Positions 781 through 21,251 of a DNA stretch of 64,000 nucleotides are shown here, one piece after another (position 1 is the first letter of the stretch; each line of letters begins with the position of its first letter). The stretch is from an uncultured Anaerolineales bacterium. Lineage in GTDB: Bacteria > Chloroflexota > Anaerolineae > CG2-30-64-16. A model generated the notes under the pieces. It saw only the letters and a program-made list of their open reading frames with translations. It searched no databases and had not been told where the DNA came from. Location of the stretch: assembly GCA_964513075.1 (NCBI GenBank), contig CAZELR010000008.1, forward strand, positions 23,876 to 87,875, given 5' to 3'. The position numbers were made by a program, and so were the translations under genes.

Positions 781-1101
781 TCACATCCCCGTTACGCGCA
801 TCTGCGCGGCGACGATCATCAACGGCATGCCGTTAGGCGCGCAGATCGCCTGGCTGTCCATCAGCAGCAGCGGCTGGCCGTTCGAGGTGACCCGCGTCGC
901 CGCGGAGACCCACTGCGCCGTGATGCATGGGCTGGGTGCGCCGCCAGCGTTGAAGACGCAGCCGGCCACCACGTATGGCGCAGCCATCGTCACCGTGGGC
1001 ATGCCGCCCACCAGCACCCGCGGGTTCGGCACAGTCGGTTGGGCCTGGCCGGCGTGCGCACACAATACGGTGGCGCCGACGTGAAGCAATGGACCTGGCA
1101 T
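781..1101 (-). CDS. PAAR-like (DUF4280) spike-tip protein
   Basis: 106 aa with a conserved Cys/Gly pattern (VLCAHAGQAQP, GCVFNAGGAPSPC, SQAICAPNGMPLMIV) matching DUF4280 PAAR-like proteins. It sits next to the spike gene. Confidence 0.7.
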   Translation of the reverse strand: MPGPLLHVGATVLCAHAGQAQPTVPNPRVLVGGMPTVTMAAPYVVAGCVFNAGGAPSPCITAQWVSAATRVTSNGQPLLLMDSQAICAPNGMPLMIVAAQMRVTGM

Positions 1102-1102
1102 A

Positions 1103-1621
1103 TCACACCACCACCAGCGCGCCCTGGTTGATCGTCACCGTGGGTCCGACCATCATGATGGACGCGCCCTTGCCGTTCTGGATATAGATGCCGCTGTCGT
1201 TCACAACGATCATCGCGCCGGTCAGGGTCTTCAGCACGATCCCCCCACTGACCGGGGTCGGCGCGGAGTCGCTGAGCAGCAGCGTGTTCTGGGCCGTGGT
1301 CTGCAAGACAACGTTCTGGCCCGGCGGCATCGCGGGCGGCACCAGGGCCAGCGCGGGCACCTCGGCCATGGATCCCCAAAATCCGCCCACCCAGATCGGA
1401 TAGTCAGGATCGCCGCGCTCGAACTCGACCCACACCCCGGACCCGATCGGCGGCGTCATGAACGCGCCCGCCTGCACGCCTGCATACGGCACGCACGGCA
1501 TCGCCCAAGTGGCTGGGATCAGATTGACATCCGAAACGCTGACCTGGATGCGCCCGATCTGCAGCGGATCGATGTTATTGACCACCGTCCCGCGGTACTT
1601 GCCATAGAATTTCTCGTTCAT
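1103..1621 (-). CDS. Baseplate spike protein, gpV/Gp5 N-terminal OB-fold family (VgrG-like, Afp8-like)
   Basis: 172 aa starting YRGTVVNNIDPLQIGRIQVSV..., the canonical phage baseplate assembly protein V motif. Confidence 0.75.
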   Translation of the reverse strand: MNEKFYGKYRGTVVNNIDPLQIGRIQVSVSDVNLIPATWAMPCVPYAGVQAGAFMTPPIGSGVWVEFERGDPDYPIWVGGFWGSMAEVPALALVPPAMPPGQNVVLQTTAQNTLLLSDSAPTPVSGGIVLKTLTGAMIVVNDSGIYIQNGKGASIMMVGPTVTINQGALVVV

Positions 1622-1641: not shown

Positions 1642-2772
1642 TCATGCCGGCACAACCGGCACGGTCGAAATCAGCCCGTTCCGCACCAACGTAAAACTCT
1701 GCTTGTACTCCCCGCGCTTGATCGTGTGCGTCACGCCCTTGACGTAGTACAGTCCATCGAACGCCGTGCCCGCGCCGCGCACGCCCACAAGCTGCCGTGC
1801 CTTGAGCACCCGGCCGTAGCGCAGCACATCCAGCGACCCGCTGCCGGTCACCGCATCGGATGAACGCGAGGCCCGTGTCAGCCCGAACACGGCCGCCCGG
1901 ATCGGCGACAGGTGCGCCGTGTCATGCAGCGGCTCGATATTCTTCGGTATAGGCGGCACCAGGCCCAGCGGCGGGTTGAGCAGCGACACGTCCGGAATCG
2001 GGATCGGAATCGGCGCCTTGGTCAGTTGGTTGTGGATGAACACCACCGGCAGCGTCGCCCGCTCATTGCTGAAGGTAAAGCTGAGTGACTCCACGTTGGT
2101 CAGCGCGTCCATGTTGTAGTTGAGCGCCGGCTGCGGCAGACCGACCCGCACCTCGGGCCCCCAATATGCGACGCTCATGCCTGGCAGCGGGCCAAAATTC
2201 AGATAGAAACTGTAGCCCACCTCTTCAGCCAGTTGCTTAATGTATGGCAGGTCCTTCCCGCGGTGGGCCGGGATACGCTCCACCGGAATCGGCACATCCA
2301 TCAGCACCGGCGGGATCACCATCGGCACAATCCCGAAGACCGCGTACTTGGCCAGGATCAACGCCACGCGGGCGAACTCGGGCATGGCCGGATAAGGGAT
2401 GCCGCTGAAATCGATGGCATCCATCACCGCAGTCAGGTCTTTGCCCTTGATCCGCAAGCTGAAGTGATCGGGATCGCTACCCGGCCCCACTTCGTGCTGG
2501 GTCATCACGCCATCCATAAGCACTTCCGGCGTCCCGTTGACCGTGGCCGCGATCACCACGCGCACCAGCGGGATAGAAGCGCCGCCGGAGAGCAGAAAGA
2601 CCGTCTGCAGCGGTGAGTTCTTGCCCAGGTCGAAGCTCAGCTCGAAGCCGCTGGTCGTCTCGCCCGAGGTCGTCATGACCTGGATTTCGGTCAACGCGTC
2701 CAGCATTTCCTGCGGCGCCGGCGCCGGCACCGCCGGCCCGATCATCAACGTGAGGTTGATACCCTTGAGCAT
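1642..2772 (-). CDS. Phage late-control gpD-like / baseplate hub protein
   Basis: Probable start MLKGINLTLMIGPAVPAPAP (an internal Met of the table ORF). This N-terminus is typical of tail/eCIS gpD-family proteins. It lies between the LysM-like and spike genes. Confidence 0.55.
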   Translation of the reverse strand: MLKGINLTLMIGPAVPAPAPQEMLDALTEIQVMTTSGETTSGFELSFDLGKNSPLQTVFLLSGGASIPLVRVVIAATVNGTPEVLMDGVMTQHEVGPGSDPDHFSLRIKGKDLTAVMDAIDFSGIPYPAMPEFARVALILAKYAVFGIVPMVIPPVLMDVPIPVERIPAHRGKDLPYIKQLAEEVGYSFYLNFGPLPGMSVAYWGPEVRVGLPQPALNYNMDALTNVESLSFTFSNERATLPVVFIHNQLTKAPIPIPIPDVSLLNPPLGLVPPIPKNIEPLHDTAHLSPIRAAVFGLTRASRSSDAVTGSGSLDVLRYGRVLKARQLVGVRGAGTAFDGLYYVKGVTHTIKRGEYKQSFTLVRNGLISTVPVVPA

Positions 2773-2779
2773 AATCGGC

Positions 2780-3169
2780 CTACGCTCCCGCGCCCGGTAT
2801 CCCCGCCGGCAGGGTAATCCGCACGACACGGCCCTCCGCCTCCAGCTCCTCCGGGGCCAGCACCGCGTTGGCGTCGCAGATGCGCCAGAACTGCTCAGGA
2901 TCGCCGAGGGCGCGGGCAGCCAGGGTATCCAGCCGGTCGCCCTGGGCCATCACGACCTCCTGCAACAGAGCATACGTCTCGGGTGGGGGAATGAAGCGCC
3001 GGCGCACGTAGGCCACCGGCGTGCCATCCGCTCGCGTGAGCACCGCGATCTCGACGCCGTGATAGCGGCTGGTGGGCGGAAACTGCGGCGCCGCGCCCCC
3101 GGCGCCGCCCAGCAGCGCCTGCAACGCCATGAATGGCGCCGCTGCGTTGGGGTCGACAATTCCACTCAT
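2780..3169 (-). CDS. LysM-like phage tail protein X (gpX) family
   Basis: 129 aa with the C-terminal DRLDTLAARALGDPEQFWRICDANAV LysM-like motif. It overlaps the next gene by 4 bp. Confidence 0.6.
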   Translation of the reverse strand: MSGIVDPNAAAPFMALQALLGGAGGAAPQFPPTSRYHGVEIAVLTRADGTPVAYVRRRFIPPPETYALLQEVVMAQGDRLDTLAARALGDPEQFWRICDANAVLAPEELEAEGRVVRITLPAGIPGAGA

Positions 3170-3816
3170 GGGAGACCTCCCAGTCCAAGGGTACTGAGCG
3201 TCCCGGCACCGCTGCGGGCCGCCAACTGCTCCTTCTGCTGCTGATAGGCCATGTAGAGGCTGCCCCCTTTCCCGCCGAAGCCCAGGTCATCCACGCTGAG
3301 CACGCGCATCCCTACACTCACCTTGGCCCGGATCGGGTTGAGGGCCGGGTCGAATGCCTCTTCGGTGATGCTGAATTCGGTGATGCGGACCGGCACCACC
3401 CGGTTCTTGCTCCAGACGAACAACGTCAGGCTGCCGATCATCGGCGCAATCTCCAGGGTCCCGCCCTGTGCCTTGGCATTGGCCGCCGTGAGCTGCGCCG
3501 TGGTCGGATAGACCAGCGTCTCCAGCGCTGCGAGCTGCGGGTGGATGCCCACCTCGGCCGCCTGCGCGTCCCCTGCAGCCAGCAGGTCGGTCGCGTCGAT
3601 CTCGGCCTCCAGCTTAAGGGTCTCGACCGGCGGCCCTTTCAACCGCAGTGCCTCCGAGCGGTCCGTGCTCTCGCCCGGCGACTTGGGCGCCAGCGAGCGT
3701 GTCAGCGTGTCCGGGTTGTATTGCAGCGCGATGACCCGCCGAACCACGCCGCTGTCCGGGTCGATCAGGACGATGCCGCCTTTCAAGAGGCGGGGGGAGT
3801 TGGTAAAAGTGGTCAT
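3166..3816 (-). CDS. Tail tube-family protein (second tube paralogue or tube initiator)
   Basis: 216 aa. IVLIDPDSGVVRRVIALQYNPDTL resembles the gp19/tube-fold signature. It is translationally coupled to its flanks. Confidence 0.5.
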   Translation of the reverse strand: MTTFTNSPRLLKGGIVLIDPDSGVVRRVIALQYNPDTLTRSLAPKSPGESTDRSEALRLKGPPVETLKLEAEIDATDLLAAGDAQAAEVGIHPQLAALETLVYPTTAQLTAANAKAQGGTLEIAPMIGSLTLFVWSKNRVVPVRITEFSITEEAFDPALNPIRAKVSVGMRVLSVDDLGFGGKGGSLYMAYQQQKEQLAARSGAGTLSTLGLGGLP

Positions 3817-5258
3817 GGCGCACTCACCGCTTCATCTGTGCTTTCTGCCTGGCTTGCCGGCGCACCGGGCGCCGCACCTGGGCCAACGCCCGGATTGGGA
3901 CTCTGGCCCGCCGCAGGTGCGGGCGCAGGTGTCACAATCTGCACCGTTGCCTCGTCGGTGTTCGTATTGCCCCGCACGCTGTCGCGCACCTGCACGGTCA
4001 CGCTGCCGGCCTGGTTCCCTGCCGTGAGCACGCCAGTGCGCGCATCGATGGTGCTGCCGAGCGCCGCTCCCTGGATGCTGAAACGCAGCGCGTGCCCCGC
4101 GGGCAACGTGCCGGGCAAGGTGTCGGCGATGACGGTGGTGCGGCTGAGCGTGCGCGCGTTGGTTGTGGGCGGAATGACGGCCGGCGTGGCGCGCGCCCCG
4201 GTGATGGCCGGCTGCCCCCTATAGGGATCGGTGTGTTCCTCGCCGTTGACGCTCGTGGCAAACTCTAGATCGTTCCCCACGACGCGCAGCGTGCGCACAT
4301 GCGACACGTCGCTGATCTTGTTCCACTGGGCTGCCTGCCGGCAGAACCAGTGAAGCTCTTGGGTGACGCTGAAGCTCACGGGAAGGGTATGCGCCGGTGT
4401 GGGATTGGACGCACTGGTAACGAAATCGCCCGCATTCACCAGCGAACGCTCCAAGGTGACGCTGTCGTGCGTGCCGCCAAGCTCGCCGTTTGTAATGAAC
4501 CAGTTCTGGCCGTTGGCAGGCGCAGCCGGCAGATTCCGCGTAGCCAGAGTGAACAAGCCGAAAGGTGTGGGAAGGGTGTGGCTAGTGCCAGTCGGATTCG
4601 GCAGCGCCGGGAACTGCTCTCCTACCGGCACATTCTCCAGCGAGCTAGTCAAGTTGTCGGCGCTGGTGAAAGCGTGATCGAACAGCGCGCCATAGACGGT
4701 GTTGGCGCTGGACGGCGCACCGGCATCCCGGGTGCGGTTGATGCCGGTGGGGTGGGAGCACAGAACAAGCTCTGCCAAGGCCGTACTGCTCGACCCATCA
4801 GCGAGCGTCTGACTGGCATGCACCTGGATGGTGCCGCCGGTTTGCGTGGCGCCGAAGGTGATAGCTCCCCCTGTGCTGATCCGCGTGCCGTTAGCAACCT
4901 GGGCCGTACCTGCGGCCAGCGACCAGGCCACGGCGCCGGGCAAATTCGCAGGCACTGTGGTGGCCATCACCTGGGTGATGCCGCACAACGGCACTTGCAC
5001 CGCGGTGCTGCCCGTAGTAAAAGCAACACCACTCAATGCCGCCGCGGCGAGCGCTGTCTGCGCTGGCGCGGGCGTCGCTTCCGCGCCTTCTCCCTCAGCC
5101 TGACCATGGCCTGTTGTGAACAGCTTGGCCGGCCGGTTGATGCTCAGTCTGGCCGATGCCAGGCCAGGCGCGGGATGCAGGACAGACGTCGCAGCAGTTT
5201 CAGTCTGTCGAACCAAGCGTGCGGCATGCATGCCGATCGAATGCTGCGCGTGTCCCAT
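3813..5258 (-). CDS. Hypothetical T/S/G-rich protein with a C-terminal Big_2-like Ig domain (tail fibre or cargo candidate)
   Basis: 481 aa of beta-rich low-complexity composition. The C-terminal FSIQGAALGSTIDARTGVLTAGNQAGSVTVQVRD resembles bacterial Ig-like group 2. Confidence 0.45.
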   Translation of the reverse strand: MGHAQHSIGMHAARLVRQTETAATSVLHPAPGLASARLSINRPAKLFTTGHGQAEGEGAEATPAPAQTALAAAALSGVAFTTGSTAVQVPLCGITQVMATTVPANLPGAVAWSLAAGTAQVANGTRISTGGAITFGATQTGGTIQVHASQTLADGSSSTALAELVLCSHPTGINRTRDAGAPSSANTVYGALFDHAFTSADNLTSSLENVPVGEQFPALPNPTGTSHTLPTPFGLFTLATRNLPAAPANGQNWFITNGELGGTHDSVTLERSLVNAGDFVTSASNPTPAHTLPVSFSVTQELHWFCRQAAQWNKISDVSHVRTLRVVGNDLEFATSVNGEEHTDPYRGQPAITGARATPAVIPPTTNARTLSRTTVIADTLPGTLPAGHALRFSIQGAALGSTIDARTGVLTAGNQAGSVTVQVRDSVRGNTNTDEATVQIVTPAPAPAAGQSPNPGVGPGAAPGAPASQAESTDEAVSAP

Positions 5259-5267
5259 CTTGCGTCT

Positions 5268-6134
5268 CTACACTTTCTTAGCCGTCTCTTTGACGGTGTT
5301 TGTTGGGCCGGCCTGGCCGATGCTGCTTTTATCGATGTCAACTTCGTACTTGATGATCGCGGTCTGTCCGTCCCGTAAATGAAGCGGATCGTAGGCCGCC
5401 AGGACGAACTTGGCCGAGTACTTCAGCGGAAAATCCTCGCTTTTGAGATCCTTGCGACACCATCCCGGCGCGTCTGCGATCACCAACTTGTCGTCGGTCG
5501 CCGTCTTGATCTCGTGGACGGGAGGTCCATCATCCCCATTCTTGGTGAAAGTCTGTCCGCGGCCCTCAGCCTTGCGATCCACCAGCCGTTTAGCCGATAA
5601 CTGGCTCGACTTGCCCCGATCCAAGTGGAAATGCACCTGGTGGACGTTGGCTATACTGCCGCCAGTTGTGTCGTTGTAGGGTCCCGGCTTGTTGAGCGTG
5701 AGATCGCACAGATCCTCTTTGGCCGGGTAGCCGCCCACGGCCCCGGTTGGACTAGTGACCAGGGTGATGTTGTCGACGTGTGGGTCGCCACTGCCAACCT
5801 GATATTGGGCCTTGTCACCGGGTGCTGTGACCTGCTCCTCCAGCATCGGTTGATCATTTTCCGCCCCCACCTGCGCTTGGTCGACCGCGGGGGCCGCCGC
5901 TTCCAGCTCCACCGCGGTGGCATCTTGCGGCATCGGCGCGCCACCGGCCCGCGTCACCGGCAGCCGGCCCAGCGCTGCCGCCGCAAGCGATGCTGCGCCG
6001 GGCCGTTCCGTAGCCGTATGCTCAGCTCCGCTGCGATCATGCAGCGAACGAAAGGCCAGGCGGCTGGGTACCAGCGGCTCCGACCGTCGAACCATCGCGA
6101 TCCGCGGCCGCGCCAGTTGCGTGAACTCGCTCAT
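5268..6134 (-). CDS. Hypothetical protein, eCIS cargo/effector candidate
   Basis: 288 aa. An N-terminal Ala/Pro-rich disordered leader of about 100 aa is followed by a roughly 190-aa globular domain with no motif I recognise. Its start overlaps the stop of the upstream small gene (ATGA). Confidence 0.5.
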   Translation of the reverse strand: MSEFTQLARPRIAMVRRSEPLVPSRLAFRSLHDRSGAEHTATERPGAASLAAAALGRLPVTRAGGAPMPQDATAVELEAAAPAVDQAQVGAENDQPMLEEQVTAPGDKAQYQVGSGDPHVDNITLVTSPTGAVGGYPAKEDLCDLTLNKPGPYNDTTGGSIANVHQVHFHLDRGKSSQLSAKRLVDRKAEGRGQTFTKNGDDGPPVHEIKTATDDKLVIADAPGWCRKDLKSEDFPLKYSAKFVLAAYDPLHLRDGQTAIIKYEVDIDKSSIGQAGPTNTVKETAKKV

Positions 6135-6429
6135 GAAACTGACCTTTCCGTCGCACCAGTCGGGCGACTCAGTTGCGTGAGGCCCTGGTGCAACGCCTGA
6201 TAGACTGCCTCTACCGCGCCCACGCCCACGGCCGCACCGGCCGCACCGGGGGCCAATGTAAACCGGCCGGAAGGCGTCAGCTCCACTCCGACGCCGTCAG
6301 CCAAGCCAGCTGGCAGACCGCGTTCGAGAATCAAGCGTGCCAACTCAGTTTCCAACGCGGCGGCAATCGCGTGCCGGTCGCCGGCCGGAAAGCCGTGCAA
6401 CACCAATTCATCGATCTCAATCGTCACGT

Positions 6430-6433
<4 letters not shown>
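6131..6433 (-). CDS. Small hypothetical protein coupled to the AAA+ ATPase
   Basis: 100 aa ORF with 4-bp overlaps at both ends inside the operon. Confidence 0.45.
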
Positions 6434-8243
<1,810 letters not shown>

Positions 8244-8247
<4 letters not shown>

Positions 8248-9548
8248 GTGATCTTCACCTTGGGGCTGGCGAACTTGCCGGTCCCGTCGACGCTCAAAAT
8301 ACTCTCTGCACCGTCCACCTGCACCGTCACCAGGTAATCCCCCGTCTCGACATTGCTGAACGCGAAATCGATGGCCGCGGTTTCGGTCGCAAGGCCGGTG
8401 ATTCCATTATCGCGCGGGGCCGGGAAGCTGTATGAGCGCGCGGGACGATCTTCCGGCGCATCGAGCTCATACAGAAACAGCGTCACCCGCTGGACCTTGC
8501 CCACCGCAGGGGTAAATTTGATATTAAGCGTCCCGGTGGCTGCGGCGACGGACGCCGGCACGGTGACAACCGGGTGCAGGACGAGGGCGGCCGCGTTGGA
8601 CTCGACCCCGCGATGCGGCACGCCAGGGTCCGGCTCGCCCATCAACACCTCCTGCACCACCTGCACGCCCAGCACACCGGCTCGCAAGCCGGCGATTCCC
8701 ACCAGCGGGAAGGTGATGCGGTTTGGCGTGACCGTGAGGCTCGGGGGCGGGACGAATGCCTCTCCCAGCCGCACACGCGTCACTTCGCCCTTCAGGCTGC
8801 TGCCGGCGATTTCAACCGTGCTGGCTGCCGTGATCCGCGGGTCGGCCGGCAGGGGCGCGGTGGAAGCCACGGCCGCGATCTGCGGCCGCACCAACGGCAG
8901 GACGATGCTCTTGTACTTCAACACCGGCAGCGCCGAGCGGGTGGATTTCTGACTCTCGATCAGGACCACCGAGGCACGGTACGTCGCGGTCAGCCGGTAA
9001 TGCGTCTGAAACGCAGCCCAGAGCTTGGACAACTCCTCCGCACCCAGCGCTTCAGGCGTGATCTTCACCTGTTCCACTTGGTCGGCCAAGTCGGCCGCGA
9101 CGAGCGTCATAAACGCAGGGGGAAGCTGTGCGCCGGTGACCGGCGATGGAAGCTCCAACGCCTTGCGGATGGCCTCACGGCTGAGCCCCGGGGTCTCGTG
9201 CAAGACCTGCATCGCATAACCCAGCAGGATCTCGGCTACAAAGTCATCACCCCCATAGGCCGACAGCAGATAATGCAGGTCCAACGCCAGGGGCGGGTTG
9301 GCGATGCGGGCGCCCAACGCGTCCCTGGCTGGCAGCGCGTGATTGCGCCACCCCTGATTTGGCGTCACCTGATACAAAAACAGATTGAGCTGCGGCTGCT
9401 CGTTGGGACCGGTGGCGATCATGTCCGGCGGCTTGGTGGTGACTCGAACAACGCCGACGGCTGCAGCCAAGTCGTGTTGGATCACGCCATTATTCAGCAG
9501 ATCCCGCAGCACCGCAGTGGTTGCGGCGATGGCCAGTGCACTGCTCAT
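8244..9548 (-). CDS. DUF4255 (Pvc16/Afp16-like) tail terminator/cap protein with a C-terminal extension
   Basis: An N-terminal TAVLRDLL...LNLFLYQVTPNQGWRN matches the DUF4255 signature. Confidence 0.7.
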
Positions 9549-10279
9549 GGTTGCCCTCCGCTGTCGCCGCGCCGGCCCTCGGTGCTCAGATAGTCGGCGA
9601 GCGACGTTCGTTTCGCAGCCGGCTGGGAGGAGGTCGCCGCTTTAGGGCCAGGCGCCGGTGCGGCCCGCACCTCGATGCGACCGATATGCACATGGATCGT
9701 GGGCTCCTGCAGCGCCGGCGGTTCAGAGGCAAGCGCCTGCGCCTGATCGCGCGCCCTATATACTGTAATCCTATCCGTACTGCTTGTTTCTACCGCTGGC
9801 CGGACGTCCTTGGGGCGAATGGCTATGCGCACGGAGTCGCGCGGCGCGGCTCCAGCCGGTGACAGCGCCAGGGTGCGCCGTTCGAGCCGATCCCCCAGCG
9901 GCGCCCCATCGCGCACGGTCAGCGCAGGCCGCAGCCGCCCCAGCTGAACCGGCAGGAGCGAGTCGGGGCGTGTCGTCACCTGAAGTGCAGTCCGGGCGGC
10001 AACTTGGGCTCCGGCGGCCGGAGTCAGCTGTGGCGGCTCACCGCGGGCAGACGGAGCTTGTCCGCCTGCCAGACGCCTCCCAGCCTCGTCGACGGCCAAC
10101 TCATCGAAATCGCTCGCGCTACCCAGCGGCGCCACGTATGGCGCTACCACGTCTGTGGCGCCGGCATCACGGGCGCCACGTGTGGCGCGTTGATAGACGA
10201 TCGGCAGCAGAGGCCGGATCGCCGCATCCACGCCCACTGTGCGCCGTGCCAGATCTGCCAGGTAATTCATCGCTGCCAT
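9545..10279 (-). CDS. Hypothetical Ala/Arg/Pro-rich protein with a C-terminal HIGRIEVRA motif (possible tape-measure-like or assembly protein)
   Basis: 244 aa of low complexity. It lies between the tube and cap genes with a 4-bp overlap. Confidence 0.5.
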   Translation of the reverse strand: MAAMNYLADLARRTVGVDAAIRPLLPIVYQRATRGARDAGATDVVAPYVAPLGSASDFDELAVDEAGRRLAGGQAPSARGEPPQLTPAAGAQVAARTALQVTTRPDSLLPVQLGRLRPALTVRDGAPLGDRLERRTLALSPAGAAPRDSVRIAIRPKDVRPAVETSSTDRITVYRARDQAQALASEPPALQEPTIHVHIGRIEVRAAPAPGPKAATSSQPAAKRTSLADYLSTEGRRGDSGGQP

Positions 10280-10286
10280 GAGTGCC

Positions 10287-11084
10287 TCATCCCTGCACCA
10301 TCTCGATATAGCCCTGTCGCCGCGCCGGGGTCAAAGCCAGGATGTCCGCTTCATGCCAACCGTAAGCACGGGCCAGGATATCAACTTCGCGTAACAGTTG
10401 TCTGGCCTGGGCCGCAATCTCCGCCCAGAAGAACCCGGCAATGTCGAACGGCGACTGCCAGCGGTGACCGCAAGCCGGACACGCCAGGTCCAGCAGGATC
10501 TCCGCCTGCGGATCGTGTGCGGCAGCCGTCGCCCCGATCGCAGCGCTCACCTCGGCCGCAATATCCTCGGGAAGCTCAGCGCCCCCAACGGCAACCCCGT
10601 CCAGATTAGCCGCCAACACGCACCGGGTCAGCAGCGCCCGCTCCGCCGCCGCAGCCACAGCCAGATCCCCGACGGCCTCCAGGTCTCCGGCGGCCGGCAG
10701 TCGAAAAGTCACCTGGCTGCCCGGCCGCGACCACTGGAACGAAGCCTTTCCCGCATCCGCGACCTGCGTCTCTTCGGATAGTCGCAGGTCGCGCGTCCGG
10801 GCAGTGAACTCCAACGCCTCGTCGCAGGCCGGGCAGTGTGCGGTCGCCGCCAGTTCCGGGCCGAACGTCCGCTCGCGAGCCTCCAGCAGCAGTGCATCCC
10901 TGCATCCCACCGTCAGCCCGGCCGGCGCGTCCGGGGCCAACTCAGGACACGCTGCAGCCAGGATGGCCAGCCCACGGCCGCCGCTGTTGCGCTGCGCCCC
11001 ACGCTCCCAGACATCGAGAATGTCGTCGCCCGTGAGCGCTCTTACGGGAGTGAACGTCCTCACCGGGGTGAGCGCTTGCATCAT
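10287..11084 (-). CDS. Hypothetical protein with two CPAC motifs (zinc-ribbon-like)
   Basis: The start is moved to the internal MMQALTPV so that it does not overlap the tube gene. It carries C-P-A-C-(x)n-C-P-A-C. Confidence 0.5.
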   Translation of the reverse strand: MMQALTPVRTFTPVRALTGDDILDVWERGAQRNSGGRGLAILAAACPELAPDAPAGLTVGCRDALLLEARERTFGPELAATAHCPACDEALEFTARTRDLRLSEETQVADAGKASFQWSRPGSQVTFRLPAAGDLEAVGDLAVAAAAERALLTRCVLAANLDGVAVGGAELPEDIAAEVSAAIGATAAAHDPQAEILLDLACPACGHRWQSPFDIAGFFWAEIAAQARQLLREVDILARAYGWHEADILALTPARRQGYIEMVQG

Positions 11085-11094
11085 CACAAATCCG

Positions 11095-11616
11095 CTACGG
11101 TTCAACGAACAACGGCTCGGACGGCTCGACGACATCGTAGTCCCGTTCCCAACCCTCGTTCTCCAGCTTGATGCTCTGGATCAACACCGCATTGGCGTTG
11201 GCATCCAGGTCGGCCTGGGCCTGGAACTCAGAGACCCAGCAGCGGTAGACCTTATACGACAGGGCGAGCTGGCCGGCCTCGTTGAAGACATCGATGATGA
11301 TGTCCTTACGAAAGTCCTTCAGCGAGACCTCGGCGCCCAGTCCCGACCCGAAATTCCATACTTTATTGGCCCACTGCTCGAATTCCTTGTCGTGGGTCAC
11401 GCCCCGCTCCAGGGTGATGGCTTCGTATTCGGTGCGGCCGGGCGACTTCCGGCTGCTGCTGGGGTCGCCGCCTTCACGGTGCTTGACCACTTCGGTGGTG
11501 CGCTTGAGCGCGCTCACCTTGCTGATTCCGGCGACATAGCGGCCATCCCACTTAACGCGGAACTTGAAATTCTTGTAGGGATCGAAACGTTGTGCGTTGA
11601 CACTGAATTGAGCCAC
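11095..11616 (-). CDS. Contractile tail tube protein (T4 gp19-like/Afp1-like)
   Basis: 173 aa with FDPYKNFKFRVKWDGRYVAGISKVSAL, the canonical tube motif. Confidence 0.85.
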   Translation of the reverse strand: MAQFSVNAQRFDPYKNFKFRVKWDGRYVAGISKVSALKRTTEVVKHREGGDPSSSRKSPGRTEYEAITLERGVTHDKEFEQWANKVWNFGSGLGAEVSLKDFRKDIIIDVFNEAGQLALSYKVYRCWVSEFQAQADLDANANAVLIQSIKLENEGWERDYDVVEPSEPLFVEP

Positions 11617-11628
11617 GGCTGCCTCCCC

Positions 11629-13158
11629 TTACGCCTGGAGTTGTCCGGCTATCTGCTGGATCTTGAGGATCACGAACTCGGCCGGTTTGAGCGGAGCGAA
11701 GCCCACAAGGATGTTGACGATGCCCCGGTTGCGATCACTTTGAGTGGTCGTGTCTTTGTCGCACTTCACGAAATAGGCGTCGCGCGGGGTGACGCCTTGA
11801 AACGCGCCCTGGCGGAACAGGTCATGCATAAAGGCACCGACGTTGAGGCGGATTTGCGCCCACAACGGCTCGTCGTTGGGCTCGAAGACCACCCACTTGA
11901 GGCCGCGGTAGAGGCTCTCCTCCAGGAACAACGCAAGCCGGCGCACCGGCACGTATTTCCACTCCGAGCCGCGCTCGTCGTTGCCTTGCAGGGTGCGCGC
12001 CCCCCAAACCACGTTGCCGTAAACGTTGAAATTGCGGATGCAGTTGATCGCCTGAATGTTGAGGGCGCCGTTCTCCAGGTCGGTCAACGGCGCAGTCACG
12101 CCGCTGACACCCGTCAGGCTGGCCTCTGTTCCCGCTGGCGCCTTCCACACGCCGCGACTTACATCCGTGCGTGCGTAGATGCCGGCAACGAAGCCCGAAG
12201 GCGGGAAAGCCCGCAGCCGGTTCTCCTGTTTCGGATCGGCCGCCTTGACCCAGGGGAAGTATAACGCCGCATTAATTGCGTCCGCGCCGGTCAAACTGTT
12301 GTTGAGGCCGGCATTTAGGCTGGAGAAGGTGGCGGATTCGGCGCTGTCGACTATGAGGAAGGCCCGGTGATCACGAGCGAACTTCTGAAGTTGTCCCACC
12401 GTGGCCGCCTCTGTTTCGCCCGGCACGATCAACAGATTGAAGAGGTCGACCCGGTCTAGCAGATTGACGCCACCGCTGCCACCCCCCGCCTGCAGCGCGG
12501 TCTCGAACGCCCCGGCCGGATCACTGGGAACCAACACCGTACCGTCCGAGCCGCTTCCCAGCATTGCCGGGGTCGCGATATCCGCACTGAAAGTGGGCGC
12601 CGGGCTTTCGGGCACGATCAGCGCCGCATCGACGAGGGCCGATCCTGCCGACAGCACATGCGGTGCGTAGCGCGCATCTTTGCTGTCCAACGAGAGGTTC
12701 TCGAACGACTCGACGACCACAGGTGTTGCGACGCCCACCGGCTTATAGGCCACCTGCAGGCGGAACCGCGTCAGGTCATCTGCGCGGCGCTTGATCGTGA
12801 CCCCGTAGGCCTCGGCCCAGTCGCCGGCGCTGCGCGCCGTCACTTTGAGCTTGCCGTCGAGGGTCGCTTCGGCCACGGCCTGATCACCGGCCACCAGACG
12901 AATGATGTAGGCCTGCTGGCCACCGTTGTTGAAGAAGTGGTAGATGCTGTAACCGAGCAGGCTCCGGACGTCAAGCCCGCCGTAGGTGCGCTCGAAGTCA
13001 GACCAACTCAAAACAAGCTGGGCGCGGTCGGTGGGCCCCTTGGCCGCCCAGCCCACAAACGCGGCGATCGAGGTCGCCACCCCACCGATGGTCCGCACGC
13101 CGCTGGGGATCTCCTCGACATACACCCCAGGGTAGGTCGGTGTCACTGGCATGCTCAT
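11629..13158 (-). CDS. Contractile tail sheath protein
   Basis: 509 aa with N-terminal PGVYVEEIPSGVRTIGGVATSIAAFVG, the canonical sheath signature. An AGGAGG RBS lies 5 bp upstream. Confidence 0.9.
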   Translation of the reverse strand: MSMPVTPTYPGVYVEEIPSGVRTIGGVATSIAAFVGWAAKGPTDRAQLVLSWSDFERTYGGLDVRSLLGYSIYHFFNNGGQQAYIIRLVAGDQAVAEATLDGKLKVTARSAGDWAEAYGVTIKRRADDLTRFRLQVAYKPVGVATPVVVESFENLSLDSKDARYAPHVLSAGSALVDAALIVPESPAPTFSADIATPAMLGSGSDGTVLVPSDPAGAFETALQAGGGSGGVNLLDRVDLFNLLIVPGETEAATVGQLQKFARDHRAFLIVDSAESATFSSLNAGLNNSLTGADAINAALYFPWVKAADPKQENRLRAFPPSGFVAGIYARTDVSRGVWKAPAGTEASLTGVSGVTAPLTDLENGALNIQAINCIRNFNVYGNVVWGARTLQGNDERGSEWKYVPVRRLALFLEESLYRGLKWVVFEPNDEPLWAQIRLNVGAFMHDLFRQGAFQGVTPRDAYFVKCDKDTTTQSDRNRGIVNILVGFAPLKPAEFVILKIQQIAGQLQA

Positions 13159-13374: not shown

Positions 13375-14475
13375 TCACTGAATCTCAAACGTCCAGAACC
13401 AAGTCACCGGCTCCCCGCTTTTCGGCGTGATCACGATCTGGACGCTGTGGGGACCTTTTTGCAAATCTGCGCCGCCCGGCCATCTGTTGCCGTGCTCGGA
13501 GAAACGCCACACGGTGCAATCCGGCTCACCGCCGCCGAAAACACAGTAGCCCGCGTTGCGTTCGGTGCGCTGGTGCACCGTCCGGTTGCTGTCATTGATC
13601 GTGAAGCTAACGGAGTCGATGCCCGCGCCATCGGTCCGCCCGACGTTGGTGTCGAAAACTTCCACCTGAAACACGATACGATCGCGGAAGACCATCGGGT
13701 TGCTGACCTCGTATGACTCGAAGCCGGGCAGCGCCACGTTGCATCCCCCCTTCACGTTCCGGCTGTTGCGGATGTTCGGGGTTTCCGAGCAACCGCCATC
13801 AACGGGCAAGATCGCGATCGCTGGAATTCGCGTTGGGGTCGCGGGCGGTGGGGTGGCCGTGACCGGTCGCGGGGTGGGAGTCGGAGGCGCGCTGCCGGCA
13901 GGTAGTGATGCCACGTCAAGATTGCATGCGACAAACTGCGCGCCCGCGCTGATCCACCCGCGCTGCCCGCCGGCATCCACCTGCACTTCGATCCATTGAC
14001 CGCTGGGGAACCCGCGACTCACAAACGATAGCGGTGTCAACGCAGCACCCTGCGGAAGGGTGCGCAGCGGCGGATTGAAGACCGTGCCGGGCCCGCCGCG
14101 CAGGTTCAATCCTGCCGACATGACCTCGCAGCGCGGAGCCGTGATTGCCGGCGTCTCTGGCGGCCGGGTCGCGGTGGCCTCGACGACCACAGGCGGCTCA
14201 GTGGGCGCCGCCTCGCCGGGAGTCGACGTAGCCCCGTTGTCGGCCGGAACAACATCAGTCGAAGCGCTCCCTGCGCCGGCTTGCACCACCTGGGTGGCGG
14301 CCACCGCGGCATCGACGGTCGCCTGGAGGCGCCCCTGCGCGGATGCGGTCGCAACAACCGCTGCATCTACGGTCGCCTGCACATTGGCCTCGCCTCCGCT
14401 GCCGCAACCCGCCAACACAGCGGCAAAAAGGACGAACCCTATCAGCCTGAGCCAAGCGCCCTTCTTCATCATCAC
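13375..14475 (-). CDS. Secreted lipoprotein with an SH3b-like domain
   Basis: Signal peptide plus lipobox (LAGC), a Thr/Pro-rich linker, and GLNLRGGPGTVF...GQWIEV, which is SH3b-like. Confidence 0.6.
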   Translation of the reverse strand: MMMKKGAWLRLIGFVLFAAVLAGCGSGGEANVQATVDAAVVATASAQGRLQATVDAAVAATQVVQAGAGSASTDVVPADNGATSTPGEAAPTEPPVVVEATATRPPETPAITAPRCEVMSAGLNLRGGPGTVFNPPLRTLPQGAALTPLSFVSRGFPSGQWIEVQVDAGGQRGWISAGAQFVACNLDVASLPAGSAPPTPTPRPVTATPPPATPTRIPAIAILPVDGGCSETPNIRNSRNVKGGCNVALPGFESYEVSNPMVFRDRIVFQVEVFDTNVGRTDGAGIDSVSFTINDSNRTVHQRTERNAGYCVFGGGEPDCTVWRFSEHGNRWPGGADLQKGPHSVQIVITPKSGEPVTWFWTFEIQ

Positions 14476-17029: not shown

Positions 17030-18202
17030 TCACGGTTCACGCCGCAGCCCAGGAAGCACACGCGCCAGCCCTGCGATGAGCGCATCCGCATCCGCCCGGT
17101 CGTTGTAGGCCTGGAAGGAAACGCGCACAAACGGCTGCCCGTTCCAGCGGACCATGGGTGCCTCCACCCGGTATTCGTCGACCAGCCGGGCCTTAAGCGC
17201 ATCCAGATCGCACTCGGGCAGACGCGCGGCAAAAAACTGAGCGAACCACCCCTCCGGGTGGCAGATCGGCGGCAGGCCGGTCAGATCGACGATGCGGTCG
17301 CGGGTGGCGGCTGCCAGTGCATGGCAGCGGCTGCGCACCGCAGGCCAGTCGTGCTCGGCCTGGAACCGGATGGCGGCGGGAACGGAAAGGAAGGCGGCGA
17401 CATCGCGCGTGCCCTGCCATTCATGCCAATCCACGAAGCGTGACAATCCGGGCCGCTCCGCCTCCCACCCCCAGCTCACCACCAGCGGCTCCAGCCAGGG
17501 CTGGACCTCGGGCCGGGCATAGAGAAATGCGGCTCCTTTCGGCGCGCAAAGCCACTTGTGACACGCGCCCGCATAGATATCCGCGCCCATCTCGCCCAGA
17601 TTCAATGCCACCTGGCCTGGCGCGTGTGCGCCGTCCACGATGGTCAGGATGCCCGCCGCGCGCGCGCGGCGACAGATCTCGGCCACCGGGAAGATCAGTG
17701 CAGTGGGGCTGGTGATGTGGCTGATGAAGATGATGCGCGTGCGCTCAGTGACGCCGGCCATGAAGCGTTCAACAAAATCGGCATGGGTCGTCACCGGCAG
17801 CGGGATCGGCTGCCGCACGGTGCGGGCGCCGGTCTGGTGGCATACATAACGCCAGGTGCGCTCCAGCGCGCCATACTCGTGATCGGTGGTCAGGATCTCG
17901 TCCCCCGGGCACAGATGGGCCGGACAATCCGGCCGCGCCAGGTTGCGGATCACCATGTTGAGCGCGGTGGTCGGGTTGGGGAAGTAGACCACGTCGTCCG
18001 CGGCCGCGCCCAGGTAAGCGGCCAGCGCAGAGCGACTCTCGGCCAGCAGGTCGTTCACCCGGCGGCCGAGGAACGCGACCGGCTGCCGCTCCAGTTCGGC
18101 CTGCCAGTACTGATACGCCTCGAAGACGGGCCGGGGACATGCGCCGAACGAGCCGTGGTTGAGGAAGTGGATGTCGGGGTCAAGGAGAAATGATAATTTC
18201 AT
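17030..18202 (-). CDS. Class V aminotransferase-fold PLP enzyme (isopenicillin-N epimerase/cysteine desulfurase-like)
   Basis: 390 aa with a PLP-lysine region ...AGACHKWLCAPKGAAFLY... and an overall class V fold pattern. Confidence 0.8.
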   Translation of the reverse strand: MKLSFLLDPDIHFLNHGSFGACPRPVFEAYQYWQAELERQPVAFLGRRVNDLLAESRSALAAYLGAAADDVVYFPNPTTALNMVIRNLARPDCPAHLCPGDEILTTDHEYGALERTWRYVCHQTGARTVRQPIPLPVTTHADFVERFMAGVTERTRIIFISHITSPTALIFPVAEICRRARAAGILTIVDGAHAPGQVALNLGEMGADIYAGACHKWLCAPKGAAFLYARPEVQPWLEPLVVSWGWEAERPGLSRFVDWHEWQGTRDVAAFLSVPAAIRFQAEHDWPAVRSRCHALAAATRDRIVDLTGLPPICHPEGWFAQFFAARLPECDLDALKARLVDEYRVEAPMVRWNGQPFVRVSFQAYNDRADADALIAGLARVLPGLRREP

Positions 18203-18320: not shown

Positions 18321-20630
18321 TTACTTCATTGCGAAGGGCAGGTAGCTCATGTAGATGTTACTTGCCACGACACCGGACACGCTGATGGATTGCACCGGGT
18401 TCGTCACCCCGGGATTTGCACTCGAGGCCACGATGACGATGACGGCGCTATACTTACCTACCGGCGTACCGGGTTTGATGCTGACCGTCATGGTCGTCGG
18501 CTGATTGGGATTCGTCACGCCACTGGCGGGTGCGAAGACCAACCAGTCCACTGCTTCCACCTGGTTGCCATCGATCAACAAGCCCTCCGCAGAAATCACC
18601 GCCTCACCAGCAGCGATCTTCTCGGCCACAGCAGCATAGCTCTGCGCCGGCAAAGCGGCTGCGGACCAAGTGGCCGTGCCGCCCGGCCGCCAGATCGTCA
18701 CGCTCCGCGTGACAACGGGTGCACCGGTCTTCTGCCAGATCGAGATCGCAGACGGCGCAACCACGAAGCCAGGATCGGGCACCGTGAGCCTCACAGTGAC
18801 GTACTGGTCGGGGTTTGCCACCTGGCTATCCTGTGTGTAAACGTGGATGGTGCCAACGTGGGAACCGGGCCCGGCGGCGGCAGAATTCACCGAGACGCCC
18901 AGGTCAGTGGGGGTCGTGCCTTGAAACGCGCTCAGCACCAGCCACCCCTGGCCCTGTAAGATTTCGGCCTTCCAGCCGAAGGCGGCGCTGCCGCCCACAC
19001 TGCGAATACTAACGGCCTGCACCGGTGATGGCTTGCCGTACTCGACGGTAAACGACAACGAGGTCGGCGAAACGCTCAGCGCAACCCCCGTCAGCGTCAA
19101 GCTCACCGTGATATCCTGTGGTGTGCCGGCCACCCCAGCCGTCGTGGCGCTGACGCGAACTGTGCCTGTGTAGTTGCCGGGGTTGATGGCCGACGTGTCA
19201 ACGGAAACGCCCAGGCTCCCAGGCGTGACGCCGCTCGTCCGATCGATCCTGAGCCAAGAGGCGCCCGACGTTACCTCGGCCCCCCAGGCAATCTGTGCGG
19301 CTGTGCCGGTATTGGAAACCATGACCGTTTGCGTCGGCGAGACCTGGCTGTATTCCAGGTTGAAAGTCAGGGCCGTCGGTGAGACAGATAGGGTCGGGCC
19401 GAGCGTCTGACCCGCCCCATCGACGTTCGCCACCGCCATGGTCGGCGTGTTGGACGTTTCTGGAGTTACATAGAAGCTGCCTGTCGTGTCGATGAAGTCA
19501 TCGTTCGCCGCCGGCGCGCCATAAATGCGATACCGATCGCCTCGAAGCACCACGATCTCATCCAGGGCATCACCGTCGGTGTCACCTACACGCACCAGCT
19601 TCCAGGCAGCGGAGCCGAAGCCGATCGTTTGAGCAAAGTCGCGCATGTCGTTCCCGGCAGGATTGATAGCAAGCAGTGCCACCTTATTCTCAATCGGGTT
19701 GCGCAGCATCACGATCTCATCATCGGCGTCGCCGTTCAGATCACCGAGGGCCAGCGAAGCGAAATCGGGATTGTACTTGTAGTTCGCCCCCGCCCCGATA
19801 TCTGTCAGCGCAGAGCCGGAAACCCGCAGCAGAATCAGCGCGTTCGTCACCGCATTCGCGCTGTCACGTTCCAGCGCGATCTCATCGCCCGCATAGGTGG
19901 CAGTGATGTTCCCCCCTGCCACCGCCAACCAATTCGTGGCATACCCACTCTGCCCCGCCAGGCTGCTCAAGCCTGAAGGCCCGCCCTTGTAAACCGAGAC
20001 CCGTCGATCGGCATTGCGCACAAGGACCAGATCATCATAACCATCGCTGTTAAAATCACCGACTGCCATATCCTGCCACGTCGCAGCGAAATCTGCTGAG
20101 TACCACAGGATCCATTCGGAAGCTGTAGCAGCCGTGCCGCCGTCGTACACGCGCAGAACCCAGGCCCCGGCCGGAGCATCGTAGACCGTGAGGGCGACCT
20201 CGTCCTTCAGATCGCCGTCAAAGTCGCCGGTTGCGAGCAATTGGATGGTCCGCGAAGTGCCCAAGTTCAGCTCATAGGACACGGTCTGTGATCCGAACTG
20301 GACGACCGGATCAAAGACCTTGAAGGTGTTGCTTTTGGCAGCGACAATCTCTGCATCGCCGTCTTTATTGAAGTCACCGGCTGCAACCTTGGTCCACCCG
20401 ATATCGCTCCCCGAATTCCAGGCCACCGGCTTAACACCGGAGGGTGTATACGGATCATCAACGCGTATTTGTCCGGTCGATGTAAGCAAAACGATCTCGT
20501 CGTCCGCAGTCGCATCAGGCGCAGCCACTTCTGCTGATGCCGTCTTCGGCAAAAGCGCCACGGACGCGACAAGCGGCGTGACAACAACGGCCAACGCGAG
20601 TAAAATGCTCAACCACGATGAGCGGTGCAT
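18321..20630 (-). CDS. Large secreted FG-GAP/VCBS repeat protein with Ig-like domains
   Basis: The start is moved to MHRSSWLSILLALAVV (signal peptide). Repeated GDFNxDGxDE FG-GAP motifs are followed by Ig-like repeats. Confidence 0.7.
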   Translation of the reverse strand: MHRSSWLSILLALAVVVTPLVASVALLPKTASAEVAAPDATADDEIVLLTSTGQIRVDDPYTPSGVKPVAWNSGSDIGWTKVAAGDFNKDGDAEIVAAKSNTFKVFDPVVQFGSQTVSYELNLGTSRTIQLLATGDFDGDLKDEVALTVYDAPAGAWVLRVYDGGTAATASEWILWYSADFAATWQDMAVGDFNSDGYDDLVLVRNADRRVSVYKGGPSGLSSLAGQSGYATNWLAVAGGNITATYAGDEIALERDSANAVTNALILLRVSGSALTDIGAGANYKYNPDFASLALGDLNGDADDEIVMLRNPIENKVALLAINPAGNDMRDFAQTIGFGSAAWKLVRVGDTDGDALDEIVVLRGDRYRIYGAPAANDDFIDTTGSFYVTPETSNTPTMAVANVDGAGQTLGPTLSVSPTALTFNLEYSQVSPTQTVMVSNTGTAAQIAWGAEVTSGASWLRIDRTSGVTPGSLGVSVDTSAINPGNYTGTVRVSATTAGVAGTPQDITVSLTLTGVALSVSPTSLSFTVEYGKPSPVQAVSIRSVGGSAAFGWKAEILQGQGWLVLSAFQGTTPTDLGVSVNSAAAGPGSHVGTIHVYTQDSQVANPDQYVTVRLTVPDPGFVVAPSAISIWQKTGAPVVTRSVTIWRPGGTATWSAAALPAQSYAAVAEKIAAGEAVISAEGLLIDGNQVEAVDWLVFAPASGVTNPNQPTTMTVSIKPGTPVGKYSAVIVIVASSANPGVTNPVQSISVSGVVASNIYMSYLPFAMK

Positions 20631-20768
20631 ATCTGTTGCCTCCTTTGTGAGTAGTGGCCCGTTGACAAACGAGCGCAACGAATTATAGCACACCGAAGAA
20701 CTCACACCAAATGCCTGTCGAGCCAGGCGTATTTCAAACGGCATATTTATTACGGTGGATTTCACAAC

Positions 20769-21251
20769 ATGAAGACAGCCAAGACGCTTGCCATGCGCCT
20801 CCTTGATGGTAAAGGCATTCCCTATGACGTGATGAGCTACGAAGTCGTGGATCATTTGTCCGCCTCCGAGGTTGCTGCGGCTATCGGCCTACCGCCGGAA
20901 CAAACCTTCAAGACATTGGTGGTCCTGCCCGAACGCGCAGGGGCCCGCCCGCTCCTGGCGCTCATCCCAGGCAGCAGCCAGCTCGACCTGAAAAAACTTG
21001 CGGCTGCAGCGGGCGAAAAAAAGGTTCAGATGGCTGCTCACAAGGAAGCCGAGCGGCTGACTGGACTAGAGAAAGGCGGGATCTCGCCGCTGGCGCTGAT
21101 GGATAAGGGATGGGCAGTCTACGTTGATGAGACGGCGATCCTCTTCGAACGTATCGAGATCAGCGCTGGCAAGGTGGGGATGGGCGTCCTGGTGCCTGTC
21201 GAGCCCTTGCTTGCGCTGCTGAGTCCTACACTGGTGGATATTGCGGGATAA
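20769..21251 (+). CDS. ybaK: Cys-tRNA(Pro)/Cys-tRNA(Cys) deacylase YbaK
   Basis: 160 aa with YbaK/ProX family motifs (KTLVV..., GGISPL). Confidence 0.8.
   Translation: MKTAKTLAMRLLDGKGIPYDVMSYEVVDHLSASEVAAAIGLPPEQTFKTLVVLPERAGARPLLALIPGSSQLDLKKLAAAAGEKKVQMAAHKEAERLTGLEKGGISPLALMDKGWAVYVDETAILFERIEISAGKVGMGVLVPVEPLLALLSPTLVDIAG

Follow-up and report, generated by a model that had tools for sequence, protein, structure and literature searches.

How does an extracellular contractile injection system (eCIS) set the length of its particles when it lacks the tape measure Afp14? The question is raised by a 64,000-nucleotide (nt) stretch of DNA from an uncultured Anaerolineales bacterium (Chloroflexota; assembly GCA_964513075.1, contig CAZELR010000008.1, positions 23,876 to 87,875), hereafter the window, in which a minus-strand operon with eCIS parts carries two genes between those of the tube and the cap. 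Both are real minus-strand genes, in the order sheath–tube–[265 aa]–[244 aa]–cap–ATPase (aa, amino acids), and the 244-aa protein is called X below. Class II eCIS are said to have neither Afp14 nor a conventional tape measure (PMC6899500, PMC10066040, PMC11566945). In Streptomyces coelicolor, the one class II system seen at high resolution, all analysed particles have an identical length (PMC12237407); the gene order of this cluster differs from that of the window lineage. We put at about 0.5 the probability that the two genes are the assembly-factor and ruler pair of class II (Afp14-less) eCIS, the best candidate for the length ruler being X, a plausible assignment with comparative support. 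The eCIS, the gp51 family and the tape-measure idea are already known; what is new is a huge unannotated family in the ruler slot of Afp14-less systems, which, as a ruler, would differ in physical nature from those known. A preliminary description of the locus had recognised a single sheath gene and had located the two genes between tube and cap, as confirmed here, and had suggested that X could be a tape measure.

The 265-aa protein and the T4 gp51 family

The first of the two genes (open reading frame (ORF) 10287-11084, minus strand) is 798 nt long with its stop codon and encodes 265 aa, not 266 as first described; its ATG at 11084 lies ten bases past the stop codon of the tube gene. We discarded a longer reading frame, the longest possible (282 aa, to 11135): it overlaps the tube gene, and its start is used neither by the gene callers nor in the homologue alignment. 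Apart from its cysteines, the protein had been considered to have no recognisable features. It nevertheless passes the threshold of the Pfam model PF12322 (T4_baseplate; 36.3 bits for a cut-off of 24.5, E 6.4e-9, profile positions 60-219 of 219), matches phrog_150 'baseplate hub', and has a sub-threshold match to Phage_TAC_7 (E 0.014). T4 gp51, the founder of PF12322, scores 177.5 bits on the same model. We found 238 homologues, and among the 120 matches listed nearly all carry PF12322; in one annotation source they go by the name 'T4 family baseplate hub assembly chaperone'.

An alignment of 27 sequences contains 28 invariant columns, including the four cysteines of the two CPAC motifs (C84/C87 and C202/C205). 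The AlphaFold model computed with this alignment reaches a mean predicted local distance difference test score (pLDDT) of 93.5 and a predicted template-modelling score (pTM) of 0.88. It places the first CPAC in the turn that joins predicted strands 77-83 and 90-96, and the second in the one joining predicted strands 196-201 and 208-213. This arrangement fits a zinc ribbon formed by two distant β-hairpins, as the preliminary description had guessed from the CPAC...CPAC pattern. Searches of the PDB by sequence and by structure returned no solved structure resembling the model. With Foldseek against BFVD we obtained T4-like 'baseplate hub assembly protein' models at template-modelling (TM) scores of 0.55-0.61 and probability 1.0; the BFVD matches also include 'hub assembly catalyst' and 'Gp26' (TM 0.4-0.61, E down to 1.3e-9). 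Note that these are predicted structures, not solved ones.

Direct sequence similarity to T4 gp51 is very low. Aligning the 27 sequences with the single T4 gp51 sequence by hhalign superposed one cysteine knuckle at a probability of 1.9%, and membership of PF12322 thus rests on the Pfam model and on the fold match. The cysteines may occupy equivalent places: T4 gp51 has CPKC at 85-88 where the window protein has CPAC at 84-87, followed by a second pair, CC at 185-186 preceding 'TDIVDVF' in T4 and CPAC at 202-205 preceding 'FDIAGFF' here, the spacing being different. Instead of the CPKC and CC of T4, the window family thus has CPAC twice, with all four cysteines invariant. Taken together, the profile match and the predicted fold, which resembles those predicted for gp51 and gp26, indicate that the 265-aa protein is a homologue of the T4 gp51 baseplate hub assembly chaperone. 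Strong homology to a known non-structural protein, named in the preliminary description as a sign against its tape-measure proposal, was found for this protein only and has no bearing on X.

T4 gp51 and gp26 are both listed as hub assembly chaperones; gp51 is essential, is needed for hub assembly and is absent from the finished particle, its molecular function being unknown (PMC3004832). Gene 51 lies in the T4 order 51-27-28-29, three genes upstream of the tape-measure gene 29, and the window operon likewise has a gp51-type gene close to the gene in the tape-measure role. Unlike its T4 counterpart, the 265-aa gene belongs to a bacterial injection-system operon, where it takes the slot of the tail assembly chaperone of P2-like phages.

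X, a large family with conserved ends

ORF 9545-10279 encodes the 244 aa of X from an ATG at 10279; a second in-frame ATG three codons on would give 241 aa and suits the family N-terminus 'MNYL...'. The C-terminal motif HVHIGRIEVRA pointed out in the preliminary description is present at aa 196-206. X has zero matches in Pfam, NCBIfam, PHROG and PDB, and a PDB sequence search with a 576-aa Anabaena member of the family found nothing. Yeast Stm1, a ribosome-preservation factor (e.g. 5mei_i residues 129-152), gave the best PDB match: its 'KPKTAQLSLQDYLNQQ' resembles the LSLQDYLKQR end of the X family over 'LSLQDYLNQ' at E 0.075, which we judged to be a coincidence.

A direct homologue search with X returned a single relative (39% identity), because the middle of the protein is too variable. 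The family became visible by synteny, with the PF12322 gene as anchor, and with a profile of the C-terminus. We fetched 80 genomic loci from Chloroflexota, Cyanobacteria, Acidobacteriota, Verrucomicrobiota, Proteobacteria, Chlorobiota and one archaeon. In 61 loci an ORF with the C-terminal motif lies between the PF12322 gene and the cap gene, and the remaining loci with both anchor genes have interrupted or unreadable ORFs in this slot. The order sheath-tube-gp51-like-X-cap-ATPase(-100-aa protein) is essentially invariant in the loci compared (83), and a recognisable X is missing from only one locus with enough sequence on both sides.

The C-terminal profile was then searched against 1.84 billion cluster representatives (50%-identity clusters), which yielded 15,470 representatives at E≤1e-3; under the stricter limit of E≤1e-10, 6,486 clusters remain. 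With the exception of one spurious repeat protein, the matches listed end at or close to the last residue of the protein, and at least 83 of the best 129 matches also have the N-terminal module. Members occur in Chloroflexota, Cyanobacteria, Acidobacteriota, Verrucomicrobiota, Proteobacteria, Actinomycetota and one archaeon. In view of this size and of the range of lengths described below, the X of the window is an ordinary copy towards the short end of a very large unnamed family, and its value lies in what can be inferred at the level of the family. We found no description of the family in the literature searched, and RefSeq labels both genes 'hypothetical protein' in two records of Streptomyces and Mycobacterium plasmids carrying the same cluster.

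Two sets of sequences were set aside. An earlier profile search returned only proteins below 100 aa, which are truncated gene calls, and served for profile building only. P0243 topped the profile search with 1322 aa and 18 near-identical repeats of ~70 aa, each containing VQVAVGRVGVRVM; we take it for a DNA satellite in translation and not for a relative.

The X copies of actinobacterial plasmids have a drifted C-terminal motif (VVVEIGRVEVRIA and VEITIDRIDVRL in loci L088, 9711-10577, and L089, 7723-8487), and the Streptomyces plasmid copy has a weak N-terminal module. The family is therefore broader than its consensus implies, and copies that have diverged further may be hidden in Streptomyces-type clusters.

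The N-terminal module, ~30 aa across phyla, reads M-S-D-F/Y-L-x-x-L-A-x-R-x-x-G ... Q/R-P ... S-x-F-x-P. The C-terminal module covers ~55 aa in the family (PTIQVTIGRIEVRA, a Pro-rich spacer and LSLDDYLKQR), with the consensus P-T-I-Q-V-T-I-G-R-I-E-V-R-A, ~20 Pro-rich residues and L-S-L-D-D-Y-L-K-Q-R-x-G-G. Six residues (I199, R201, A206, L227, Y230 and L231) are invariant in an alignment of 53 sequences; the conservation first suspected for the IGRIEVRA motif is strong and far from chance. The alternation in TIxVxI-GR-IEVRA is the pattern of a tight β-hairpin which, judging from the sequence, would need partners to fold.

Between these modules the middle is unalignable. Its length makes X range from 194 to 620 aa (median 298) in the unbiased sample of the profile search and from 228 to 1216 aa in the syntenic loci, i.e. 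from 194 to 1216 aa overall with the same termini. Nearly all long forms (516 aa and more) are cyanobacterial, and their middles contain recent tandem repeats that stay in frame, namely 225 bp x4.2 (98% identity) in L005 (7589-8529), 252 bp x4.1 in L012 (6921-7951), and 258 bp x2.8 together with 135 bp x3 in L063 (7111-7511, 8267-8990). The cyanobacterial units measure 75-86 aa with up to 98% nucleotide identity, and X reaches 875-1216 aa in Nostoc loci. The X gene of the window itself has no significant tandem repeats.

AlphaFold assigns X a mean pLDDT of 58 and a pTM of 0.19, with most of the chain devoid of secondary structure. Helices are predicted only at 2-15 (pLDDT ~81), 173-184 and 227-237, and residues 23-144 remain below 50. 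Note that the alignment was deep only over the C-terminus, so that weak helices could be missed in the shallow middle. On average, the middles of the family contain 13% Pro, 19% Ser+Thr and 11% Gln+Asn, hydrophobic residues making up only 22%; the middle is thus Pro/Ser/Thr-rich, and it is predicted to be unstructured. From the low model confidence and this composition, X is neither the low-complexity helical protein first proposed nor the β-rich globular one that had been named as an argument against that proposal.

Length ruler or another core function

The slot of X is the first argument for a ruler. In phage P2 (FI-FII-E/E'-T-U) and in the R2 pyocin the genes follow the order sheath-tube-chaperone-tape measure-terminator. 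In the loci with enough flanking sequence, X lies likewise after the tube gene and the assembly chaperone homologue and before the terminator, which is the generic placement of phage tape measures. The window thus shares with P2-like tails and the R2 pyocin (gpE/E'-gpT-gpU; PA0624-PA0625-PA0626) a series of sheath, tube, small assembly factor, variable-length protein and terminator. Neither window protein has detectable homology to the P2 or R2 pyocin tape measure and chaperone and, unlike a P2-type tape measure, X is neither the largest ORF nor a coiled coil. A programmed frameshift was not seen either, although no search aimed at one was made.

The second argument is the plan of the protein. 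Known eCIS tape measures have conserved N- and C-terminal regions around a middle of variable length (bioRxiv 10.64898/2026.05.27.728243), as X does. With Afp14, Pvc14 and Alg14 (PF19268, the CIS_TMP family defined by Afp14 from pADAP), X also has in common that it is encoded by one gene per cluster, adjoining the cap and AAA+ ATPase genes as afp14 does in the antifeeding prophage (AFP). It differs from them by the lack of any PF19268 or phmmer match, by a Pro/Ser/Thr-rich middle predicted to be unstructured instead of helical, and by its length, typically ~300 aa as compared to 526 aa for Alg14 and 535 aa for Afp14. An analogy in function only, from unrelated machinery, is provided by the type III needle and hook rulers YscP and FliK, which have a partly unfolded, Pro-rich, repeat-containing variable middle between conserved terminal modules.

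Third, no competing tape measure is encoded nearby. Queries with Afp14 and T4 gp29 (phmmer) found nothing in the window or in the related loci, and a complete sister cluster of the same lineage, pMYCSM01, encodes neither a CIS_TMP protein nor any other tape-measure-like protein. In addition, the ATG of the cap gene overlaps the stop codon of X (ATGA, read directly in the sequence), which couples X to the cap gene and which we count in favour of a ruler. Because of the 6,486 clusters at E≤1e-10 and of the wide spread over phyla, X looks like a core component and not like cargo.

Several points weigh against a ruler function. No sequence relation to known tape measures was found: at E≤1 neither the X of the window nor P0300, P0246 and P0251 match PF19268, on which Afp14 itself scores 169.7 bits; PF25671 (T4 gp29) is unrelated in sequence to X; the other Pfam tape-measure families match neither the window protein nor long members, the sole trace being TMP_N at E 0.15 in one member; and the termini have no tblastn match in 50,697 phage records and no relative in the PDB. 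The middles of characterised tape measures are helical, almost exclusively alpha-helical (bioRxiv 10.64898/2026.05.27.728243), and X, with its pLDDT of 58, three short helices and 13% Pro in the middles, is not. The predicted lengths are also short. The published eCIS slope of 0.2156-0.229 nm per residue (bioRxiv 10.64898/2026.05.27.728243) gives ~53-56 nm for 244 aa and ~64 nm for the family median of 298 aa, roughly half of the ~120-nm particles of the Anabaena contractile injection system (CIS) and AlgoCIS. To span 75-90 nm, the 244 aa would have to form an extended chain (roughly 0.3-0.36 nm per residue). Further, the study of the related Streptomyces davawensis system does not name X among the proteins with significant enrichment alongside the tagged spike tip (PMC11126660), and neutral drift would also yield a disordered linker of variable length. 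As a length calibrant we considered, and rejected, the thylakoid-anchored CIS of Anabaena PCC 7120: this system is of another kind and has an Afp14 (all3313 carries the annotation afp14), and its 119-nm length therefore says nothing about X. Of the tape-measure proposal in the preliminary description, the slot and the conserved C-terminal motif stand, and the family adds conserved ends and a middle of hypervariable length; the helical character is not supported, and neither PF19268 nor T4 gp29 gives a match.

These same observations bear on the main rival, in which X nucleates or plugs the hub and tube lumen, the middle is a tolerant linker and length is set by something else. The C-terminal module would then assemble or close the central hub, and the N-terminal module would contact another partner. 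Conservation confined to the termini, a middle with the composition of a disordered linker, repeat expansions that could be neutral, a partner gene homologous to a hub assembly chaperone, and lengths that, predicted from 244-300 aa, are short for an eCIS would all be accounted for. It leaves the system without a ruler, as neither the window nor the complete sister cluster encodes an alternative one, and it does not explain why X occupies the tape-measure slot or why its translational coupling is with the cap gene instead of the baseplate genes. On balance we regard this hub scaffold as rather unlikely; most of the probability left after it goes to a cargo adaptor and to unrelated roles.

A cargo adaptor would read the gene neighbourhood differently. 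X would load or tether cargo together with the AAA+ ATPase and the cap, the disordered middle serving, for example, as an effector leash in the tube lumen. X is indeed immediately upstream of the cap and ATPase genes and has a conserved N-terminal module, and a preprint reports that the AlgoCIS ATPase is needed for cargo loading and that cargo has N-terminal loading sequences (bioRxiv 10.64898/2026.05.27.728243). The position and termini of X are, however, invariant, whereas cargo genes in these loci are free to vary (the 288-aa and 481-aa proteins in the window, a Col-Pyo DNase in L001, DUF4157 proteins elsewhere), and nothing links the termini of X to cargo. We consider such an adaptor improbable.

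In a third alternative, a large DUF4157 protein related to tape measures sets the length, or the system has no ruler, and X has an unrelated, e.g. regulatory, role. The authors of the S. davawensis study propose the DUF4157 'tapemeasure-related effector' (Tme) as a relative of tape measures, which is a further point against X: Tme is remotely similar to them, is largely disordered, co-purifies with the spike and the tube initiator, and has been proposed to reside in the tube (PMC11126660). The Tme clade and the relatives of the window system both span Actinobacteria, Proteobacteria and Chloroflexota. Tme is, however, a ~2000-aa cargo nuclease with an eCIS_core domain, and its gene follows that of the ATPase; the X gene is another one and occupies another slot. 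The window cluster has no DUF4157/eCIS_core protein: in the slot after the ATPase, the 100-, 288- and 481-aa proteins have no Pfam match, to eCIS_core (PF13699) or otherwise, although sister clusters do carry PF13699 proteins. Moreover, DUF4157 proteins behave like cargo and can measure anything from 359 to 1819 aa in one and the same cluster, and X is far more widely and uniformly conserved. Of the alternatives considered, this is the least probable.

Returning to the assembly-factor and ruler pair, the gene order, the family membership of the 265-aa protein, and the conserved termini, variable length and predicted lack of structure of X are the observations from which we infer chaperoning, docking sites and a ruler function, as follows. 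X would consist of three parts, namely a short N-terminal helix module, a Pro/Ser/Thr-rich middle of free length, and a C-terminal module made of the β-hairpin-like TIxVxIGRIEVRA, the Pro-rich spacer and the LSLxDYL helix. The gp51-like protein with its putative zinc ribbon, a non-structural chaperone as gp51 is in T4, would hold X and hand its C-terminal module to the central hub (tube-initiator, gpD-like and spike proteins). Tube and sheath would then polymerise around extended X chains until the growing tube reaches the N-terminal module, where the Pvc16-like cap would dock and end growth. X would thus be the functional equivalent of a tape measure, extended or disordered instead of helical. 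The more specific form of this proposal, in which X is a non-helical, Pro-rich, intrinsically disordered ruler with its own nm-per-residue constant and a length evolving by in-frame repeat expansion, is more tentative, and we see it as possible but doubtful; if true, it would explain how particle length is set in Afp14-less (class II) systems.

Both genes occur in thousands of Afp14-less clusters and make a concrete candidate pair of ruler and chaperone. If the pair is real, it would open the length, hence the cargo capacity, of a large group of systems to engineering, as recently achieved for the length of AlgoCIS (bioRxiv 10.64898/2026.05.27.728243); it would also define a new, non-helical class of molecular ruler and give a hint at what T4 gp51 does. 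Even with the ruler function wrong, X remains a core component with at least 6,486 protein clusters, and merits a family name.

Operon layout and neighbouring genes

The features of the operon are collected in Table 1. As with X and the cap gene, the ATG of the ATPase gene overlaps the stop codon of the cap gene (ATGA, again read directly). The window stops short of the gp25 and baseplate-J genes that complete the sister clusters.

Table 1. Genes and motifs of the eCIS operon in the window, listed from upstream to downstream
Feature	Positions	Strand	Basis
CHAT-domain protein, 809 aa	14472-16901	-	domain named after the syntenic gene in L001
Putative lipoprotein	13375-14475	-	weak SH3_3 match
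Sheath, 509 aa, first gene of the conserved block	11629-13158	-	Pfam Phage_sheath_1 and Phage_sheath_1C
Tube, 173 aa, T4 gp19 type	11095-11616	-	Pfam PF06841, E 1.6e-45; TIGR02241
265-aa gp51-family (PF12322) baseplate hub assembly chaperone homologue	10287-11084	-	PF12322, phrog_150, AlphaFold, Foldseek
First CPAC knuckle (C84, C87) of the 265-aa protein	10824-10835	-	invariant in 27 homologues
Second CPAC knuckle (C202, C205) of the 265-aa protein	10470-10481	-	invariant in 27 homologues
X, 244 aa, tape-measure candidate	9545-10279	-	synteny, C-terminal profile, AlphaFold
X N-terminal module, aa 1-32, MAAMNYLADLARRTVG...IRPLLPIVY	10184-10279	-	cross-phylum conservation; predicted helix 2-15
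X C-terminal module, aa 190-244, PTIHVHIGRIEVRA, Pro-rich spacer and SLADYL	9548-9712	-	alignments
HVHIGRIEVRA motif of X, aa 196-206	9662-9694	-	read in the sequence
SLADYL of X	9587-9604	-	alignments of the C-terminal module
Cap / tail terminator, 434 aa, Pvc16_N (DUF4255)	8244-9548	-	PF14065, E 2e-49
AAA+ ATPase, 605 aa, Afp15-like	6430-8247	-	PF00004 and PF22977
100-aa protein	6131-6433	-	no family match
288-aa protein	5268-6134	-	no family match
481-aa protein	3813-5258	-	no family match
CIS_tube-like protein	3166-3816	-	
129-aa protein	2780-3169	-	
395-aa protein, placed as P2 gpD-like by position	1642-2829	-	faint VgrG-related match only
VgrG-like spike	1103-1621	-	
Probable spike-tip (PAAR-like) protein	781-1101	-	position and sequence reading, not family search

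The start of the 100-aa gene (6131-6433, minus strand) overlaps the ATPase stop codon. Its product is recognised by BLAST at the same position in 32 related loci, and actinobacterial clusters have proteins of similar size (75-88 aa) in this slot. It was considered as a possible relative of X, its N-terminus NVTIEIDELVL resembling the IGRIEVRA strand, and was rejected, the C-terminal profile giving no match at E≤10.

The 481-aa and 288-aa proteins (3813-5258 and 5268-6134) have no PHROG match either. In L001, L087, L088 and L089 their slot holds DUF4157/eCIS_core proteins or a Col-Pyo DNase, and the two are probably lineage-specific cargo or effectors without the usual eCIS_core marker.

Directly upstream of the sheath gene lie the genes for the putative lipoprotein, the CHAT protein and a class V aminotransferase (17030-18202, minus strand), in an order that matches the one in L001 (1216-6316), the sole close relative. 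The caspase-like CHAT protein attached to the eCIS operon may be regulatory. Just outside the stretch syntenic with L001, at 18321-20855 on the minus strand, is a gene for a secreted-looking protein of 844 aa with repeated 'GDFNxDGxDD' (FG-GAP/VCBS-like) motifs and Ig-like C-terminal repeats.

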